DNA of 64,000 bases from Patescibacteria group bacterium (lineage in GTDB: Bacteria; Patescibacteriota; Minisyncoccia; Minisyncoccales; GWA2-38-27). The stretch spans positions 68-64,067 of the forward strand of contig JAHCRG010000016.1 in the NCBI GenBank assembly GCA_020148045.1, in the 5' to 3' direction. Both the position numbers and the translations under genes were made by a program. Shown one piece after another: positions 48,250 through 61,506 of this stretch. The notes under the pieces are model-generated. The model ran no database searches. It saw only the letters and a list, made by a program, of their open reading frames with translations, and was not told the DNA's origin. Position 1 is the stretch's first letter. Each line of letters opens with the position of its first letter.

Positions 48250-48522
48250 ATGGCTGTTAAATTTATTAAAGAAAGAAAAAAACAAAGGTATTTAATTATA
48301 GGTTTTGGGATAATGCTTGTAGCTATTAGTATTGTTTTGTGGTCAGGATATTTTAAAAAGGAAGAGCCTATCGCTCCTCCAGTTTCGGTCATTCCTCTTA
48401 GAGAAATAAAAATAAATTTTGAAGTTTTAGAAAATCCGTTCTTGAAAGAACTTCAACCTTTTGTAGAGATTTCTCCCTTTGTAGGTGAAAAGGGACGAGA
48501 GAATCCATTCTTACCGTATTGA
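48250..48522 (+). CDS. small bitopic membrane protein of the pilMNO operon
   Basis: One TM helix. Its stop codon forms the base of the 27-bp hairpin preceding pilB. Confidence 0.4.
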   Translation: MAVKFIKERKKQRYLIIGFGIMLVAISIVLWSGYFKKEEPIAPPVSVIPLREIKINFEVLENPFLKELQPFVEISPFVGEKGRENPFLPY

Positions 48523-48610
48523 AACTTGAAACTTGAAACTTGAAACATTATTGATTGATAAGAATGTTTTCAAAATAAAATAAGTTTTAAGTTTTAAGTT
48601 TTAAGTTTCA
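48520..48610 (+). repeat. 27-bp hairpin of heptamer words (GAAACTT)n / (GTTTTAA)n spanning from stop codon to start codon
   Basis: 48520-48546 pairs base-for-base with 48584-48610: 24 Watson-Crick pairs plus 3 G-U pairs. 37-nt loop. Confidence 0.85.
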
Positions 48611-56100: not shown

Positions 56101-57346
56101 TTATCTATACTTTTTTGAGATGCGTACCCTAGCGGATATTTTTGAATATATTATAGGAACCCCTGGAATAGAAACTTCCACTATTGTAGAGGATATAAAA
56201 GCACTAGAATGGGGGGTAGTAAATTTTTCTTTCGGGTTATTAATTCTTTTTATCCCATTAAGCCTTTCATTGCTATTTATAGATAAAGTAATTATTTCAA
56301 GATGGAAATTAGAAAGAGGAAGGGGGACAATAAAAACAATTTTTAGAATAGTATGGCTAATTACTTTAGTTGTTTTTATTATATTTATTATTTGTTTTGC
56401 CCTACCAAAAATATCTTTTAGTAGAGAAATAGAGGAGTCCAATACCAATACTAATATTATAAATCCACAACCGAAAGGTCTTTCTGCTCCATTACTACAA
56501 TCTGTTTTTCCCGATCTTGACCTTCATCTTTATTGTGAGGATGGTAAGCATATTGGAATGAATTATGAGACTGGAGAATATGAAATTCAGATATCTGGGG
56601 CGATGGTATCTGGCGATAATCAGGATGCACCAGAGTGGATATTTATTCCTGAAGATATAACTGGCTGTCATTTTGTAGTTTCCTCTTATGATAATCAAAA
56701 ATTCTTAGAGGAAAACCCAGAAATTGCTCAAGAAATAGAAGATACTACTGATGGTTATGATGTTTATGCTCGCTATATTGACCCTGCTACTGATATTTAC
56801 ACCTCAACTATTATTTCAGAAAATATCCAACCCGCTACAGAACTAGAACATCCAATTAGTGGTACTCACGATGTTACTATAGAGCCAGGAATTTTACTTG
56901 CTCGTGTTGATCTTGATCCCGATACCTTAAATCTAAAGAGCAAAGGAAAATGGCTAACAGTTTATATTGAGTTGCCAGTAGATTATGATGTCAATGATAT
57001 TAATTTAGAAAGCATTAAGTTAAACGGCCAAATTCCGATTGAAACAAAGCCAACTGAGATTAGTGATTACGATGGGAATGGTATACCTGATCTAATGGTC
57101 AAATTTGATCAATCAGCTGTTCAGGCTATTCTTGAAATAGGAGAAGAAGTAGAAATAGTAATTACCGGTGAGCTGATTGACGGAAGATTGTTTCAGGGTA
57201 GCGATATTATTAAAGTGATTTCAAAAGGTAATCAAAAAGAGGCTCTGGCTGTAGTAATTTTAGCTTGTTTTGCGGTAGGAGGATTGTTAGTTTATAGACG
57301 GAGATTTAGGAAAATAAATAGAGTTCTTAATGAAAAATCAGAATAA
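53183..57346 (+). CDS. 1387-aa polytopic surface protein: NosD-like parallel beta-helix, M6/InhA-like HExxH metalloprotease, 4-TM block, C-terminal ectodomain, C-terminal TM anchor
   Basis: N-terminal signal/anchor. About 12 N-rich PbH1-type repeats ending GNYWSDY...DGMGD..Y. HEIGH at 55142-55156 followed by GKWDVMAMG. Four hydrophobic helices (about 55930-56420) that look internally duplicated. DYDGNGIPD loop. Terminal TM helix plus RRRFRK. Confidence 0.7.
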   Translation: MRTKPITVILVSVVALLITVSVLANEELPELEPLMPGRIEGSGIYFKIEDSEYLNLVLKSNEEIKVVLESIPRMISLEIEATFSASSTLLTIEGLEPNKTYYKYQDSYKNEAVFISSENGSYSWTQDLTKSHHIWIQEGRGTIFINTDTILTSDLSESVEITADNISLDCNGHSITGSSTGYGVYLNNRKGVTIKNCNLTNFSYGIFLYSSLNIEIDKNDISNARYGIRLDYSPNNKLTNNIASSNIYSGICLMRSGDNILIDNTANLNKKHGIFLWEDSSHEYTNDNTLTNNTVNSNDDYGIFLYNSCNNTLTNNKVANNNHGLVVDSASYNNTLTGNLVSSNNYGIWLLRGARNNTLTNNTASDNHYYGIYLWWRISNSQINNNILSNNGVGIYLGNSSDNSIYHNNFINNWHHQAIIDHRGVNNLFDDGYPSGGNYWSDYIGVDLYSGPNQDEPGGDGMGDSLYTFLGGEDRYPFMEESGWGVPPVPSYNVAVILAEPNNISHDSSSTSAQPCKLLPEKTYPNGRSKEYYQDLVYCVADYNKENSFETIDLDFEIFDDNGNWFKTDKNEQDYLGKEHEFVAEAIDLATDKGVDLSDKDIIIVIHSGEAARTKEDIGKKLITMTWGLISQPLEYPPYKIIVAEDDFVGAWAHEIGHIIGALITPQNTITPDLYKMGNVGKWDVMAMGSRNDDGKNPPYMSSYTKEFLQWLNYDIHPKSAYGEYWINSLETSKSGDGVFRYNLSDDTDDLSPKYYILEGRNRNLETWDSSLPEEKALVLYKVDTRNYPEYGYAPDGVMNNQYRTIDIPFFDSILTPDGDSHLDMRNLVYITALSDEQTAEIYRIKSKIEKVDYDFFEDRFRGVILEPSSQFYQKIIQYLPFHHYPFRFELEYRKAFREHGALIELPHPDVARKQIIEEISVILASFVLLNLLLILLKIKVIPRLKSESRKRITQILLRIFWIICIVVFIILLYLYFFEMRTLADIFEYIIGTPGIETSTIVEDIKALEWGVVNFSFGLLILFIPLSLSLLFIDKVIISRWKLERGRGTIKTIFRIVWLITLVVFIIFIICFALPKISFSREIEESNTNTNIINPQPKGLSAPLLQSVFPDLDLHLYCEDGKHIGMNYETGEYEIQISGAMVSGDNQDAPEWIFIPEDITGCHFVVSSYDNQKFLEENPEIAQEIEDTTDGYDVYARYIDPATDIYTSTIISENIQPATELEHPISGTHDVTIEPGILLARVDLDPDTLNLKSKGKWLTVYIELPVDYDVNDINLESIKLNGQIPIETKPTEISDYDGNGIPDLMVKFDQSAVQAILEIGEEVEIVITGELIDGRLFQGSDIIKVISKGNQKEALAVVILACFAVGGLLVYRRRFRKINRVLNEKSE

Positions 57347-57370
57347 AAATTTGGAAATTAAGTTCCATTA

Positions 57371-57422
57371 AAAACCTAAAACCTGAAACTTTTAAATAAT
57401 ATGTTTTAAGTTTTGGAGTTTT
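57371..57422 (+). repeat. imperfect heptamer-word hairpin (AAAACCT units vs GTTTTAA/GTTTTGG units)
   Basis: Roughly 19 paired positions with 2 mismatches, 2 wobbles and 1 bulge. Lies downstream of the 1387-aa gene. Confidence 0.5.
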
Positions 57423-57528
57423 CCACACCCCTGTTTGATATAGATGTGCTACAATTTAAATAACGGTAACTAAAAAACCTAAAAGGTCGAAGGTTTAATA
57501 ATTAGCAAAGTAAAAAATTAAAATTAAA

Positions 57529-57921
57529 ATGACTAAAAAATATAGAGGATTTACTCTGATTGAATTATTAGTGGTAATTGCTATTATTGGAATTCTTGCC
57601 TCAATCGTTTTGGTTTCTTTAACTACTGCTAGATCCAGGGCTTATGACGCTGAAATAAAGAGTGAATTATCTCAAGTAAGAGCTGATGCAGAAATGTATT
57701 TCATTGATAATGACACATACGTAGCCTATAGTGTGCCAGGCACTTTACTTCCTCCAGATTGCAGTAACGACAGTCTCTATCAAGTTGGCACAAGTGCTAC
57801 AGCATATGCGGCTTGGGCTGGCTTATGTTCAACCACTGCAAACGATTGGTGTGTTGATTCTGCTGGAATGTCTAAAGAAGTAACTGGTGGGGTAACTGCT
57901 GGCGCAACTGTTTGTCCGTAA
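57529..57921 (+). CDS. pilA: type IV major pilin
   Basis: Class III signal MTKKYRG|FTLIELLVVIAIIGILA. C-terminal Cys pair. Followed by a terminator. Confidence 0.85.
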   Translation: MTKKYRGFTLIELLVVIAIIGILASIVLVSLTTARSRAYDAEIKSELSQVRADAEMYFIDNDTYVAYSVPGTLLPPDCSNDSLYQVGTSATAYAAWAGLCSTTANDWCVDSAGMSKEVTGGVTAGATVCP

Positions 57922-57941
57922 AGATATAAAATTTATTTAAT

Positions 57942-57973
57942 CAAAACCCGTTGTTAGCGGGTTTTGGTTTATT
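57942..57973 (+). terminator. terminator after the major pilin gene
   Basis: CAAAACCCG/CGGGTTTTG 9-bp stem followed by GTTTATT. Confidence 0.7.
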
Positions 57974-58022
57974 CACAGCTTATATTATTGGTATCTGAAT
58001 TTATTTCTGTTACAATAAATTA

Positions 58023-58445
58023 ATGAAATCCTTCACTTTAATTGAAGTATTAGTAGTGGTTACTATCATAGCATTACTCATTAGTATTAATTTGGTTGCT
58101 ATTGGCCATTATCAAGATAAGGCTAGGGACACAGCAATTGCAGCTGGTTTGAGCCAAGTAAGAAAAGTGGCAGCAATGATTTATACTGATGAAAATTCTT
58201 ATGAATTTATCTGTGCTGCGGACAACACTCTTAATGATAGCTATCCGGCTCTGAAAATGATTGAAGATGATGTTAATAAATTCACTGGTGAAAACCCTAC
58301 TTGTTATTCTGAAAGAACTGCTTATTGTGTTCAATCATCTTTACTTTCAGCTGGTGGAGGTTATTTCTGCATAGATTCTACTGGGTTTGCCGACAAGATA
58401 GATGGAGATTATTGTACAGGTACTAGTAAAAATTGCTCTCCCTAA
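58023..58445 (+). CDS. pilin-like protein with atypical MKS|FTLIE leader
   Basis: FTLIEVLVV N-terminal helix, but Ser rather than Gly at position -1. An in-frame stop at 57996-57998 precludes a longer leader. Confidence 0.6.
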   Translation: MKSFTLIEVLVVVTIIALLISINLVAIGHYQDKARDTAIAAGLSQVRKVAAMIYTDENSYEFICAADNTLNDSYPALKMIEDDVNKFTGENPTCYSERTAYCVQSSLLSAGGGYFCIDSTGFADKIDGDYCTGTSKNCSP

Positions 58446-58453
58446 AACTTATT

Positions 58454-59245
58454 ATGGGAATTTTTTTTTATCCGATTATTTTTATTTTTGGTTTAGCTGT
58501 AGGTAGTTTTTTGAATTGCGTGATTTACCGGCTTGCCTTTCCAAGGGGCAGGTCTTTTTGTCCCTATTGCAAACACATATTATCTTGGCAAGACCTGATT
58601 CCGGTTTTAAGCTTTTTTATTTTACGAGGCAAATGCCGTTATTGCCTGAAAAAAATATCCTGGCAGTATCCATTAGTGGAGTTAGCTACAGGAATTTTGT
58701 TTATCTTGATATTGAATTATGAATTAGGAATTATGAATTATGAATTTTTTGATTTTAGAACTATTCTTAATTCTTTATTCTTAATTCTTACTTCCTGTTT
58801 TTTAATAATAATTTTTGTTTATGACCTGAAACATTTTATCATCCCCGATAAAATAATCTACCCAGCAATCGTAATTACTTTTTTATATAATTTAATTCTT
58901 AATTCGCAATTCATAATTCATAATTCAATTTTCGCTGCCTTGGGCGCAGCTCTATTTTTTTTATTTATTGTTCTTGTATCCCGGGGTCGCTGGATGGGTC
59001 TCGGCGATGTTAAGTTAGCATTTTTTATTGGTCTTTTTCTTGGCTTCCCCGATATCTTAATTGCCCTATTTTTTGCTTTTCTAATTGGTGCTATAATAGG
59101 AGTAGGACTAATTTTAGCAAAAAGGAAGACCTTAAAAAGCGAAGTGCCCTTCGGACCATTTCTGGTAACCGGCACATTTATTGCTTTATTTTGGGGTCCA
59201 ACAATTATTGATTGGTATCTTAATTTTGTAACCTATAACCTATAA
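58454..59245 (+). CDS. pilD: prepilin peptidase (A24 family)
   Basis: N-terminal CxxC...CxxC. Two Asp motifs (VYDLKHFIIPD, GLGDVKL). Start moved to ATG 58454. Confidence 0.85.
   Translation: MGIFFYPIIFIFGLAVGSFLNCVIYRLAFPRGRSFCPYCKHILSWQDLIPVLSFFILRGKCRYCLKKISWQYPLVELATGILFILILNYELGIMNYEFFDFRTILNSLFLILTSCFLIIIFVYDLKHFIIPDKIIYPAIVITFLYNLILNSQFIIHNSIFAALGAALFFLFIVLVSRGRWMGLGDVKLAFFIGLFLGFPDILIALFFAFLIGAIIGVGLILAKRKTLKSEVPFGPFLVTGTFIALFWGPTIIDWYLNFVTYNL
58714..58746. repeat. heptamer-word arm (GAATTAT units) inside pilD, left arm
   Basis: GAATTAT GAATTAG GAATTAT GAATTAT GAATT. Complementary to 58894-58926 at 29 of 33 positions, plus one wobble. Confidence 0.8.
58894..58926. repeat. heptamer-word arm inside pilD, right arm
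   Basis: AATTCTT AATTCGC AATTCAT AATTCAT AATTC. Confidence 0.8.
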
Positions 59246-59251
59246 CTCATA

Positions 59252-59869
59252 ATGACTTGTTCCACGTTTCACTTAATTGCGAAGCAATTACAAGGAGCGA
59301 AGCGACTGGTTCGTGCTTCAAGTTTCAAGAAGAAGGGGTTTTCTCTAACTGAATTTCTGATAGTAATAAGCATTATTGGTATTTTTTCAGCAATAACTTT
59401 TCCTAATTATCGCTCCACTCAGCAGCAACTTATTCTTCAACGCTCAGCAAGTAAATTAGCCCAGAATATAAGGAAAGTTCAGGAGATGGCAATATCGGCA
59501 AAAGAGTGTCCTCCCTCAATCTGTGGAGGGCCGGGGTCAATAATTCCACCAGGATATGGAATTTATCTGAAAAAAGATGATTTAGATTATTTACTATATG
59601 CTGATGTCAATCCAGCAGCTGGAAATGAAAAATACGATTCTGGCAATGATAAAGTAGTAGAAACTATTCCCCTGGAAACAGGAGTAGAAATAAAGAGTGT
59701 TTCCCCGGCCTCTATGAGCATAAATTTTAAGCCACCTGACCCTGAAGTAAAAATATCTGGAACTGATACTGATGATGCCGCCGAGGCAGTAATTACTCTC
59801 GTCGTTGAAGGTACTTCATTTGAGAAAAAAATTATAGTTAATAAAGCAGGCCTAATTTATGTGGAATAA
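59252..59869 (+). CDS. minor pilin (FimT/GspH-like) with 29-aa leader
   Basis: KKKG|FSLTEFLIVISIIGI prepilin site. No in-frame ATG closer to the site. Confidence 0.65.
   Translation: MTCSTFHLIAKQLQGAKRLVRASSFKKKGFSLTEFLIVISIIGIFSAITFPNYRSTQQQLILQRSASKLAQNIRKVQEMAISAKECPPSICGGPGSIIPPGYGIYLKKDDLDYLLYADVNPAAGNEKYDSGNDKVVETIPLETGVEIKSVSPASMSINFKPPDPEVKISGTDTDDAAEAVITLVVEGTSFEKKIIVNKAGLIYVE
59259..59331 (+). repeat. 73-nt module shared by two minor-pilin 5' ends, copy 1
   Basis: 70 of 73 nt identical to 59911-59983. Contains two GCGAAGC mini-hairpin motifs and GTTTCAAGTTTCAAG words. Confidence 0.85.
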
Positions 59870-59910
59870 TAACTTAAAACTTTATTTTTATTCAAAGTTT
59901 CAGGTTTCAG

Positions 59911-59983
59911 GTTCCATGTTTCACTTAATTGCGAAGCAATTACAAGGAGCGAAGCGACTGATTCGTGTTTCAAGTTTCAAGAA
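59911..59983 (+). repeat. 73-nt module shared by two minor-pilin 5' ends, copy 2
   Basis: See copy 1. The remainders of the two genes are dissimilar. Confidence 0.85.
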
Positions 59984-60476
59984 AAGAGGATTCACTATTC
60001 TTGAAGTTATGATTGCTATTTTCGTTGTTACAATTGGAGTATTGGCTGCTCATACTGTGACCCAACAAATAATTTCTTATACTCATCGTTCTGCTTCCCG
60101 GCTTACTGCTATTTACCTTGACAAGGAGGGGATTGAAATTGTCAGGAATATAAGGGATACAAACTGGCTGGAAGAAGAATCCTGGAATTATGGTTTAGGA
60201 GCTGGAGATCGGGAAGCTGATTATACGAATGATCAGAATTTGTATGTTTGTTCTTCTCCTTGTGATCCTGATAATAATCTTAGATTTCTTAAGCTTGGGG
60301 CGGGTGGATTTTATAACTATTCCTCTGGAGTTGATACGAAATTTAAAAGAAAAATTACAATTACACCTGTTGGCAATACCTTGGAAGTTTCTGTTGAAGT
60401 ATGGTGGGAATATAAAGGTGACACTTATGGACCGATTAAAGCTCAAGAAAATTTATATGATTGGTATCCAGAATAA
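59916..60476 (+). CDS. minor pilin (PilV-like) with 25-aa leader
   Basis: KKRG|FTILEVMIAIFVV. Start taken at ATG 59916. Confidence 0.65.
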   Translation: MFHLIAKQLQGAKRLIRVSSFKKRGFTILEVMIAIFVVTIGVLAAHTVTQQIISYTHRSASRLTAIYLDKEGIEIVRNIRDTNWLEEESWNYGLGAGDREADYTNDQNLYVCSSPCDPDNNLRFLKLGAGGFYNYSSGVDTKFKRKITITPVGNTLEVSVEVWWEYKGDTYGPIKAQENLYDWYPE

Positions 60477-60492
60477 CAATCATCTAAACATT

Positions 60493-60543
60493 ATGTTTAA
60501 ATGTTAGAATGTTAAAATGAGGAAATGTTTAAATGTTAAAATG
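60493..60543 (+). repeat. octamer array: seven ATGs exactly 8 nt apart
   Basis: ATG at 60493, 60501, 60509, 60517, 60525, 60533, 60541. The last is the MNRG|F prepilin start. Confidence 0.85.
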
Positions 60544-61059
60544 AATAGGGGTTTTACCTTAGTAGAGATGATGGTTACTGTGCTTATCTTTTCTATAGTT
60601 ATCGGAACTGTTATCGGGGTTTTTGTCTCAGCTCTTCAAATACAAAGATATAATTTAGCTTATCAACAACTTTTGGACCAGACCAGCTATGCCATGGAAT
60701 ATATGAGCCGGGCAATAAGAATGGCAGTCAAAGATGAGGGTGTAGGTTGTATAAGCTCAGGATTAAATTATCAGAGTGATGCCTCAGGAATAAAATTTGT
60801 AAATTATAAAAGCCAATGTCAAGAGTTTTTATTGGAAGGCGGTCAGCTAAAAGTAGAATTTGATTCAGGAGGTAAAATTCCTCTAACCTCAGATGATTTT
60901 AATGTAACTTCTCTTAGTTTTGGAATTTCTGGCGAATCAGACGAAGATAATCTTCAGCCAAGAGTAACAACCTTTATGGAAATACAAGGGAAGGGCTCGA
61001 AACTTCAGCCAAAAGTAACCATTCAAACTACTATTTCCCAAAGAAACCTTGATTTTTGA
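60541..61059 (+). CDS. minor pilin (PilW-like)
   Basis: MNRG|FTLVEMMVTVLI. The alternative in-frame ATG at 60517 is part of an ATG-octamer array. Confidence 0.65.
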   Translation: MNRGFTLVEMMVTVLIFSIVIGTVIGVFVSALQIQRYNLAYQQLLDQTSYAMEYMSRAIRMAVKDEGVGCISSGLNYQSDASGIKFVNYKSQCQEFLLEGGQLKVEFDSGGKIPLTSDDFNVTSLSFGISGESDEDNLQPRVTTFMEIQGKGSKLQPKVTIQTTISQRNLDF

Positions 61060-61115
61060 CATTGTGGAAAACCCCTTTATTATTATTTTTAAAAATGGTA
61101 AAGTAATGTAGTAGT

Positions 61116-61409
61116 ATGATACCTGAGAAAATAGATAAAAAATCTCTTTTATACTTTATAATTTTTGTAATAACTATCCTTGTTTTTGTTGGCTTTTTCT
61201 ATTATCTTTCTCAAATACTGGAAATGGAAGAAGGGAGGGAGCCGATTAAAGAGGAAAGAATTACCGAAGAGATTCTGAAGCAATTCGGAGCTCCTAATGT
61301 GGAAGGAAGAGAAATCCCAAAAGAAACTTTAAAACAATTCGAAGCTCCCAATGTGGAAGGAAAGGAAATTCCAGAGGAGATTTTAAGACAATTTGGAACT
61401 TCTGAATAA
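61116..61409 (+). CDS. small bitopic membrane protein with tandem 16-aa repeats
   Basis: One TM helix, then about 2.5 copies of E.LKQF.APNVEG.EIP. Confidence 0.4.
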   Translation: MIPEKIDKKSLLYFIIFVITILVFVGFFYYLSQILEMEEGREPIKEERITEEILKQFGAPNVEGREIPKETLKQFEAPNVEGKEIPEEILRQFGTSE

Positions 61410-61506
61410 ATATACCAACCTTTCAACATAAAAAAATAACTAAATTATCGAGGCGGGATCTCCATAACTAATATTATTGAGGTCCAACCTCAATAATTAT
61501 TAAAAT

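Follow-up and report, generated by a model that had tools for sequence, protein, structure and literature searches.

A short palindromic repeat dispersed in Nealsonbacteria-like Patescibacteria lies in frame in the leaders of two minor-pilin genes

The pilin locus and its two module copies

The DNA analysed here, hereinafter the window, is a stretch of 64,000 nucleotides (nt) from the genome of a Patescibacteria group bacterium (assembly GCA_020148045.1, contig JAHCRG010000016.1). Towards its end lies a gene for a predicted prepilin peptidase, followed by three pilin-like genes, the first two of which (genes A and B) contain near-identical copies of a 73-nt module in their 5' parts. The module has a 40-nt core, which proves to be a dispersed repeat. 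An earlier note on the window had drawn attention to the module and to the unusually long leaders that it encodes. The features of the locus are as follows.

58433..59245, plus strand: putative prepilin peptidase by Pfam (A24_N_bact and Peptidase_A24), expected to remove the leaders
59229-59246: TAACCTA array, 2.6 copies, before module copy 1
59252..59869, plus strand: pilin-like gene A, with copy 1 in frame inside a leader of 29 codons (59252-59338)
59259..59331, plus strand: module copy 1, core and flanks
59272..59311, plus strand: core of copy 1, 40 nt; it begins with a hairpin (3-nt loop) and ends with a near-invariant tail of 22 nt, which holds the second GCGAAGC word
59859..60476, plus strand: pilin-like gene B; its leader of 44 or 25 codons contains copy 2 in frame
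59897..59923, plus strand: GTTTCAG array, 3.9 copies, abutting copy 2
59911..59983, plus strand: module copy 2, with the extent given in the earlier note
59924..59963, plus strand: core of copy 2, 40 nt; matched by a covariance model (R1, below)
59967-59981: GTTTCAA array, 2.1 copies, within the copy 2 region
60517..61059, plus strand: third pilin-like gene, from its open reading frame (ORF) and Pfam, without the module

The alignment of the two module copies is gap-free and has three mismatches in 73 positions (96% identity over 73), in agreement with the 70 identities counted in the earlier note. The differences (copy 1/copy 2) are C/T at 59265, G/A at 59309 and C/T at 59316, and all three change the amino acid. 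A 43-nt exact word occurs twice in the window, with 0 expected from 100 shuffles. As had been claimed, the two GCGAAGC words, the hairpin and the GTTTCAG heptamers are all present, and the remainders of the two genes are unrelated. Specifically, proteins A and B cannot be aligned past the N-terminal helix and are alike only in the helix and the module-encoded part.

The earlier note had proposed a search for the 73-mer elsewhere in the genome. The whole assembly (824,760 bases, 23 contigs), searched also with covariance model R1, contains the module in these two copies only, so that no further copy is present in the 825-kb genome. R1 scores the core of copy 2 at 79.1 bits. The inner part of each module flank is also found in a copy from another genome of the family (G016), and the last few bases on each side are common to the two window copies only.

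Genes A and B match the N_methyl family PF07963 with E values of 4.2e-06 and 1.9e-06, respectively, both above the cut-off. Both encode a class III signal, namely a G|F cleavage site, a hydrophobic helix and Glu at +5. The ATG of gene A at 59252 lies 6 nt past the peptidase stop codon, as in its orthologues. Gene B has two in-frame ATGs, one at 59859, which is of the ancestral type and overlaps the gene A stop, and one at 59916, within the module. As stated in the earlier note, neither gene has an ATG, GTG or TTG from the end of the module to the G|F site. The leader of 29 residues described for gene A stands. That of gene B, described as 25 residues, may instead be 44 residues in view of the in-frame ATG at 59859, because the orthologues start in the same way, with an ATG overlapping the gene A stop. 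The other pilins of the locus had been credited with leaders of 4-7 residues; this is right for the gene at 57529 (7), the gene at 60517 has 4 or 12, and the gene at 58023 falls outside the range (3, without Gly).

A dispersed repeat with a 40-nt core

The genome of the window (G000) was compared with 38 other genomes of its family (G001-G038; 39 in all). A blastn search with the module gives significant partial matches in four of the 38, from four other genera (92% identity over 60 nt in G016; one to three matches each in G037, G001 and G018). The matched DNA in these relatives has stop codons in nearby frames and adjoins a dnaA-like ORF, nusB and rnc, the 3' end of a valyl-tRNA synthetase gene, and a tRNA. 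Covariance model R1, built from nine copies, finds strong matches in 5 of 39 genomes, representing five genera (two in G000, one in G001, one in G016, three in G018 and three in G037), and weak matches in three further genomes; the other 31 have no match at E up to 0.01. Among 150 other genomes sampled from the class, one has a match, and it belongs to another family of the same order.

Counts beyond these genomes were obtained with a degenerate 26-nt pattern of the tail. The pattern occurs in 13 stretches of genome contigs, from metagenome-assembled genomes labelled Candidatus Nealsonbacteria, Parcubacteria, Patescibacteria and some Saccharibacteria, and in 87 stretches of metagenome contigs (80 of the 87 listed); in viral contigs this pattern has 0 matches. 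Removal of duplicates left 75 unique instances. The core is a dispersed repeat of a Nealsonbacteria-like Patescibacteria lineage.

Similarity among the 75 unique instances starts at the C before TTAATT and ends at GGTT, which corresponds to 59272-59311 in the window. DNA contigs (Logan) of sequencing runs, among them X1, X2 and X4, were also aligned to the window. X4 contigs of other organisms diverge from the window at 59272 and 59311, where they have loose ends. The first part of the core is a hairpin with a constant base and an apex that varies in sequence and length. The second part is the 22-nt tail, at most positions of which at least 79 of 85 distinct instances are identical, a near-invariance that stems in part from the collection, since 75 of the 85 were gathered with an exact tail pattern. 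Matches found by the model alone vary more than those collected by the pattern.

The hairpin covaries. In 109 matches (85 distinct rows), 96% of the hairpin pair cells hold standard pairs, in an alignment fitted to the covariance model's own structure, which inflates the apparent constancy. Both sides are changed in 31 hairpin cells; shuffling gives 6.7 on average, and none of 500 shuffles attains 31. With slid registers, the paired share drops to 13-64%. The apex pair exchanges among GC, CG and AU, with both sides changed in 25 of the 85 distinct rows. Conservation is at the nucleotide level. Variation is concentrated in the covarying apex, where it affects entire codons, and does not fall on codon third positions.

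An Rfam scan of 57000-61500 at E up to 10 gives no match over the module, the nearest row being a plant microRNA model at 59860-59917 with 22.7 bits against a gathering score of 90.8. The fold of 59240-59345 is not more stable than those of shuffled sequences (z = 0.00), and RNAalifold on nine copies recovers the first hairpin only.

A TGTAAT-like word is often found after the tail. The flanks of the core are AT-rich and often consist of heptamer arrays, which are either inverted around the core (loci L051, L057, L061 and L067) or direct (L134 and L007). At one locus (L120:3472-3581), three 42-nt core units lie head to tail. In X1 contigs, 59311 is followed after a few letters by 59273 again, a sign of tandem core copies in other organisms.

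Insertion sites between and within genes

No ORF of at least 80 codons runs across the core in 56 of the 75 unique instances. At the 38 loci with an ORF on both sides, the core is antisense to co-directional neighbours in 18 and sense in 15, with four divergent and one convergent. A general role as a 5' untranslated region or promoter element was considered and rejected, the orientation to neighbours being about even. The 103 neighbouring ORFs match 128 Pfam families, a miscellany whose 25 most frequent members include no transposase and no pilin family.

Gene junctions that hold a core elsewhere are mostly kept in G000. Both neighbours match G000 at 24 loci, and at 19 of these 24 they are adjacent in G000. 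Four junctions compared with the G000 stretch (nusB|rnc, S19|L22 and two others) have a short spacer and no core. Elsewhere, core copies occupy the operon spacers S19|L22, L10|L12 and nusB|rnc, and the genes stay unsplit. Split host genes, as expected from an excised element in a closed frame, were looked for and not found at the 24 loci matched to G000, where the neighbours are two separate genes with near-full coverage; this check, in which eight close pairs of flanking ORFs are listed, was not exhaustive.

The remaining 19 instances are covered by an ORF. Six of these ORFs are short and doubtful, and the remainder are real genes. Besides the two window pilins, the core lies inside genes for TsaD (two loci), an MnmA-type tRNA enzyme, KsgA/RrnaAD, SecA, class II fructose-bisphosphate aldolase, archease, GvpL/GvpF (two loci, L119 assigned by Pfam scan and L128 by likeness judged by eye), DUF3048 and one protein without a Pfam match. 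Pfam matches were obtained for nine of ten scanned host proteins. Three reading frames of the core are used in these genes, two sense and one antisense.

For six of the host proteins G000 has an orthologue, and in each of the six it lacks 14-38 residues precisely where the element lies. KsgA of G018, which has an antisense core, is likewise matched by a G000 orthologue gapped there; the site in KsgA is the one that holds the sense copy in L127. The earlier note had itself named an occurrence of the module only in non-coding DNA upstream of unrelated genes as evidence against its account. This is largely what is found in other genomes, and the module also occurs inside unrelated ORFs.

Two core sites are occupied in opposite orientations in different organisms, one in ksgA (L127 and L007) and one in a spacer (L110 and L122; in G000, contig C23 at ~56.3-57.4 kb). 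This reflects either recurrent insertion at a hot spot or inversion. One of the TsaD proteins (L052:3-1193) contains a second kind of inserted segment twice, near the N- and C-termini. These segments are Arg/Gly-rich, of ~14-20 residues, and missing from the G000 orthologue, which suggests another in-frame repeat family.

The core is not specific to pilin genes. Pilin-type cleavage motifs within 250 nt of the 75 instances are confined to the two window copies and to two motifs downstream of the intergenic copy at L055. Only the window copies lie in a pilin leader; the L055 copy is upstream of a pilin gene, and that at L049 is beside the 3' end of one. Between the L055 core and the real pilin gene is a stop-terminated mini-ORF of 15 codons with a pilin-like start (L055:2028-2110), whose coding sequence overlaps a palindromic word also present downstream of the core in L062 and L080.

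The orthologues of genes A and B define the ancestral state of the leaders. Orthologues of gene A are present in 35 of 39 family genomes and those of gene B in 32 of 39, adjacent to each other and downstream of the peptidase gene. Most have a start codon a few codons before the G/A|F site and therefore a short leader. The ATG of gene A follows closely after the peptidase stop and that of gene B overlaps the gene A stop; gene B begins with identical residues 1-3 in three genomes, that of the window among them. Both ATGs (59252 and 59859) are preserved in the window, where the mature parts follow in the same frame. Between each ATG and the basic residues before the cleavage site it has the module, accompanied in gene B by heptamer repeats.

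Run X2, from another study, includes a contig of a relative without copy 2. This contig joins 59869 to 60001 with 14 letters instead of 131 and skips copy 2; read across the joint, its ATG lies five codons before the Phe. Another X2 contig skips 59220-59334. A third, 94% identical to the window, runs from gene A into copy 2, so this junction is not confined to a single assembly. The repeat has produced the long pilin leaders, which are a derived condition, and a long leader is not the conserved family trait expected of type IVb pilins.

Other insertions are found at the cleavage-site codons of pilin orthologues, where the G-F-T motif is doubled: in gene B of G008 (L150), G031 (L154) and G029 (L160), and in gene A of G001 (L157). 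By eye, that of G008 is a long perfect palindrome. They are different repeat families at the same tolerant site. Such varied insertions in relatives indicate that the leader-coding region is repeatedly hit or tolerant.

Period-7 arrays are a general feature of the genome. Tandem Repeats Finder reports 121 of them, with many different units, and 59 have at least three copies. The earlier note had suggested a test for long-range pairing of the module with a hairpin at pilB. The pilB element at 48519-48546 is not a hairpin. It consists of a tandem (TTGAAAC)x4 array followed by a (TAAGTTT)x4 array, and pairing with 48521-48546 rests on a generic heptamer unit. The TTGAAAC-type unit is among the commonest of the 59 arrays (five arrays in the genome), and the complementarity between module and pilB is therefore not specific. 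Similar heptamer arrays border many core copies elsewhere. The bases immediately ahead of copy 1 were considered as a parS-like site, an idea that was dropped because their second half is a direct heptamer repeat and not an inverted one.

Further repeats lie at the locus. The peptidase ORF holds three period-7 arrays (58713-58746, 58763-58806 and 58893-58927), which are translated in frame, and contigs of other organisms match the peptidase region in these arrays only (loose ends at 58713 and 58745). An octamer array, ATGTTAAA in 6.4 copies at 60493-60543, overlaps the 5' end of the third pilin ORF. It has one extra 8-nt unit in X2 and X4 contigs, which indicates that the unit number differs among strains. 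A similar array lies upstream of both pilin orthologues in G009. The array could be a slippage-prone promoter or start region. A 54-nt tandem repeat of 2.1 copies (61281-61393) within the ORF at 61116-61409 gives a repeated 18-residue segment.

Origin of the long leaders and relation to known repeats

The best explanation is that each module is a selfish repeat, similar in kind to the Rickettsia palindromic elements (RPEs), which inserted in frame into the leader-coding DNA of two minor-pilin genes and was tolerated there. We give this a probability of roughly 0.7. The repeat would enter otherwise conserved junctions sporadically, and could also lie within a protein-coding gene provided that one of its open frames is in register. 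Its hairpin and invariant tail are presumably recognised by an enzyme acting in trans. In the window, translation would run from the ancestral ATGs through the repeat, and the peptidase encoded just upstream would cut off the lengthened leader. The mature pilins would then be unchanged and the insertion nearly neutral, because the leader is probably cleaved off. The second copy may stem from local copying or gene conversion, or the same sub-family may have inserted twice.

Several observations weigh against this explanation. No transposase could be defined for the core. Y1_Tnp (PF01797) matches are present in 25 of 39 family genomes, namely all four other core-bearing genomes and 21 of 34 core-free ones, and there are none in G000, a distribution that speaks neither for nor against a partner like the REP-associated tyrosine transposases (RAYTs). 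Terminal inverted repeats and a target-site duplication could not be defined in the instances compared, among which there is no closely related pair of filled and empty sites. The repeat is conserved at its centre and varies in its arms, opposite to a typical miniature inverted-repeat transposable element (MITE). Both G000 copies lie in pilin leaders and share flanks beyond the generic core, which is not readily due to chance; the shared extra flanks may reflect local copying. The apparent constancy of the core owes something to the fitted alignment and to the exact tail pattern, as noted above. Lastly, that ribosomes read through the module and that a leader of 29 or 44 residues is cut off are steps that we infer.

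The Y1_Tnp-like matches of the family number up to seven per genome. Many lie in open frames of ~215-290 codons and cover only the C-terminal two-thirds of the profile.

Alternatively, the core could be a nucleic-acid signal that serves the host, such as a REP-like stabiliser, a processing site, a translation modulator, or a protein-binding or priming site, which here tunes two minor pilins and is only incidentally translated. The covarying apex and near-invariant tail in many genomes, the copies within operons (S19|L22, L10|L12 and nusB|rnc) that split no gene, and the TGTAAT-like word that often trails the tail are all consistent with such a role. We nevertheless regard it as unlikely. A host signal is hard to reconcile with a core that has no match in 31 of 39 family genomes, strong matches in five and a match in only 1 of 150 other genomes of the class, that stands in either orientation to its neighbours and inside ORFs in three frames, and that is flanked by miscellaneous genes (128 Pfam families among 103 ORFs). 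Moreover, it has no Rfam match at E up to 10 and an ordinary fold energy (z = 0.00).

A more speculative possibility, which we likewise consider doubtful, is that the core belongs, as its recognition module, to a mobile or processing system of Nealsonbacteria-like Patescibacteria that has yet to be described. Such a system would have a conserved centre and heptamer arms that it targets or generates, would colonise spacers and, in frame, essential ORFs of sub-megabase genomes, and would revisit sites in opposite orientations (ksgA and the L10|L12 spacer). The core could also be excised at the DNA or RNA level rather than tolerated, and the two direct copies in the window could drive reversible deletion of pilin A.

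It is quite improbable that pilin translation starts inside the module, at an in-frame CTG (59305 and 59957; in copy 2 an ATT comes next), with AAGGAG 8 nt upstream as the ribosome-binding site, which would give an 11-residue leader and low minor-pilin expression. AAGGAG at 59291-59296 does lie 8 nt ahead of an in-frame CTG, no clear Shine-Dalgarno motif precedes the ATG at 59252, and AGGAG/AAGGA words peak ~10-13 nt before the ATGs of a minority of genes in this genome (16% versus 10% in a control window, from crude start calls). Shine-Dalgarno use in the genome is weak, however, and AAGGAG is not evidence of a start signal because every copy of the core has it as an invariant part, antisense and intragenic copies among them. 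Both ancestral ATGs remain in frame and have the same spacing from the preceding stop codon as those of the orthologues, so that non-canonical initiation is not required.

It is highly improbable that the long basic leader has a function of its own, for example as a signal of type IVb kind or for secretion timing, and is kept alike by gene conversion. In its favour, the copies agree at 70 of 73 positions in otherwise unrelated genes, and the encoded peptide is basic and, with 25-44 residues before a Gly site, in or above the type IVb range. However, all three differences between the copies alter an amino acid, the orthologues are mostly short-leadered, and elsewhere this DNA is mostly non-coding or, in other proteins, translated in different frames. 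Phe after the cleavage site, Glu at +5 and a mature length of ~160-175 residues fit short-leader minor pilins. Among the three readings in the earlier note, a conserved nucleic-acid element that happens to be translated comes closest to the insertion of a selfish repeat proposed here, and the type IVb-like leader is not upheld.

The repeat resembles several known systems in part. Repetitive extragenic palindromic sequences (REPs) are ~35-40 nt long and consist of an imperfect hairpin with compensatory changes beside a conserved single-stranded word, in either orientation; they are extragenic and usually number hundreds. The core is like REPs, the bacterial interspersed mosaic elements (BIMEs) that they form and their Y1-type RAYTs in its length and in its hairpin beside a conserved word, and Y1_Tnp-like ORFs are common in the family. 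Unlike these elements, the core also occurs in ORFs and is rare per genome, and G000 has the core but no Y1_Tnp. MITEs (ERIC, BOX, Correia and others) are described as non-autonomous repeats able to make translational fusions (PMC10969869). Similarly, the core appears non-autonomous and is fused in frame with host ORFs, but it has no definable terminal inverted repeats or target duplications.

The closest likeness is to RPEs, which the same source describes as units of ~150 bp found between genes and in frame in unrelated genes (PMC10969869). As far as that description goes, both are short palindromic dispersed repeats of a reduced-genome lineage, intergenic and in frame in housekeeping genes, to which they add a peptide segment. 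Consistent with an RPE-like repeat, the core shows present/absent polymorphism at conserved sites (19 of 24 junctions and seven host proteins), frame-preserving insertion in unrelated genes and a palindromic hairpin structure. It is not a unit of ~100-150 bp that encodes one conserved peptide: the conserved unit is ~40 nt versus ~150 bp, with a conserved centre and variable heptamer arrays as arms, it is read in three frames, it has 0-3 copies per genome, and it belongs to a different phylum. The likeness is one of functional kind, by description, and not of sequence family. Short palindromic repeats that also insert in frame into genes are thus a kind already known. What differs here is the 40-nt conserved centre, the variable heptamer arms, the low copy number and the sub-megabase Patescibacteria genomes. 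Nothing relevant on such a repeat in the candidate phyla radiation or Patescibacteria was among the top-ranked literature matches.

For the pilins, the unusually long basic leader is the product of a repeat insertion and not a new secretion signal, and is ordinary in consequence. Annotators should not infer type IVb biology from these leaders. The repeat is also a likely cause of assembly breaks, because Logan contigs end inside the core.

In terms of genome biology, the essential genes secA, tsaD, ksgA and mnmA are entered in frame by a repeat of episymbiotic ultra-small bacteria whose streamlined genomes measure 0.5-0.8 Mb. In-frame repeats in essential genes are a pattern best known from Rickettsia. 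The repeat is a natural marker of tolerated insertion sites in conserved proteins, and a handle for finding the enzyme that moves it.

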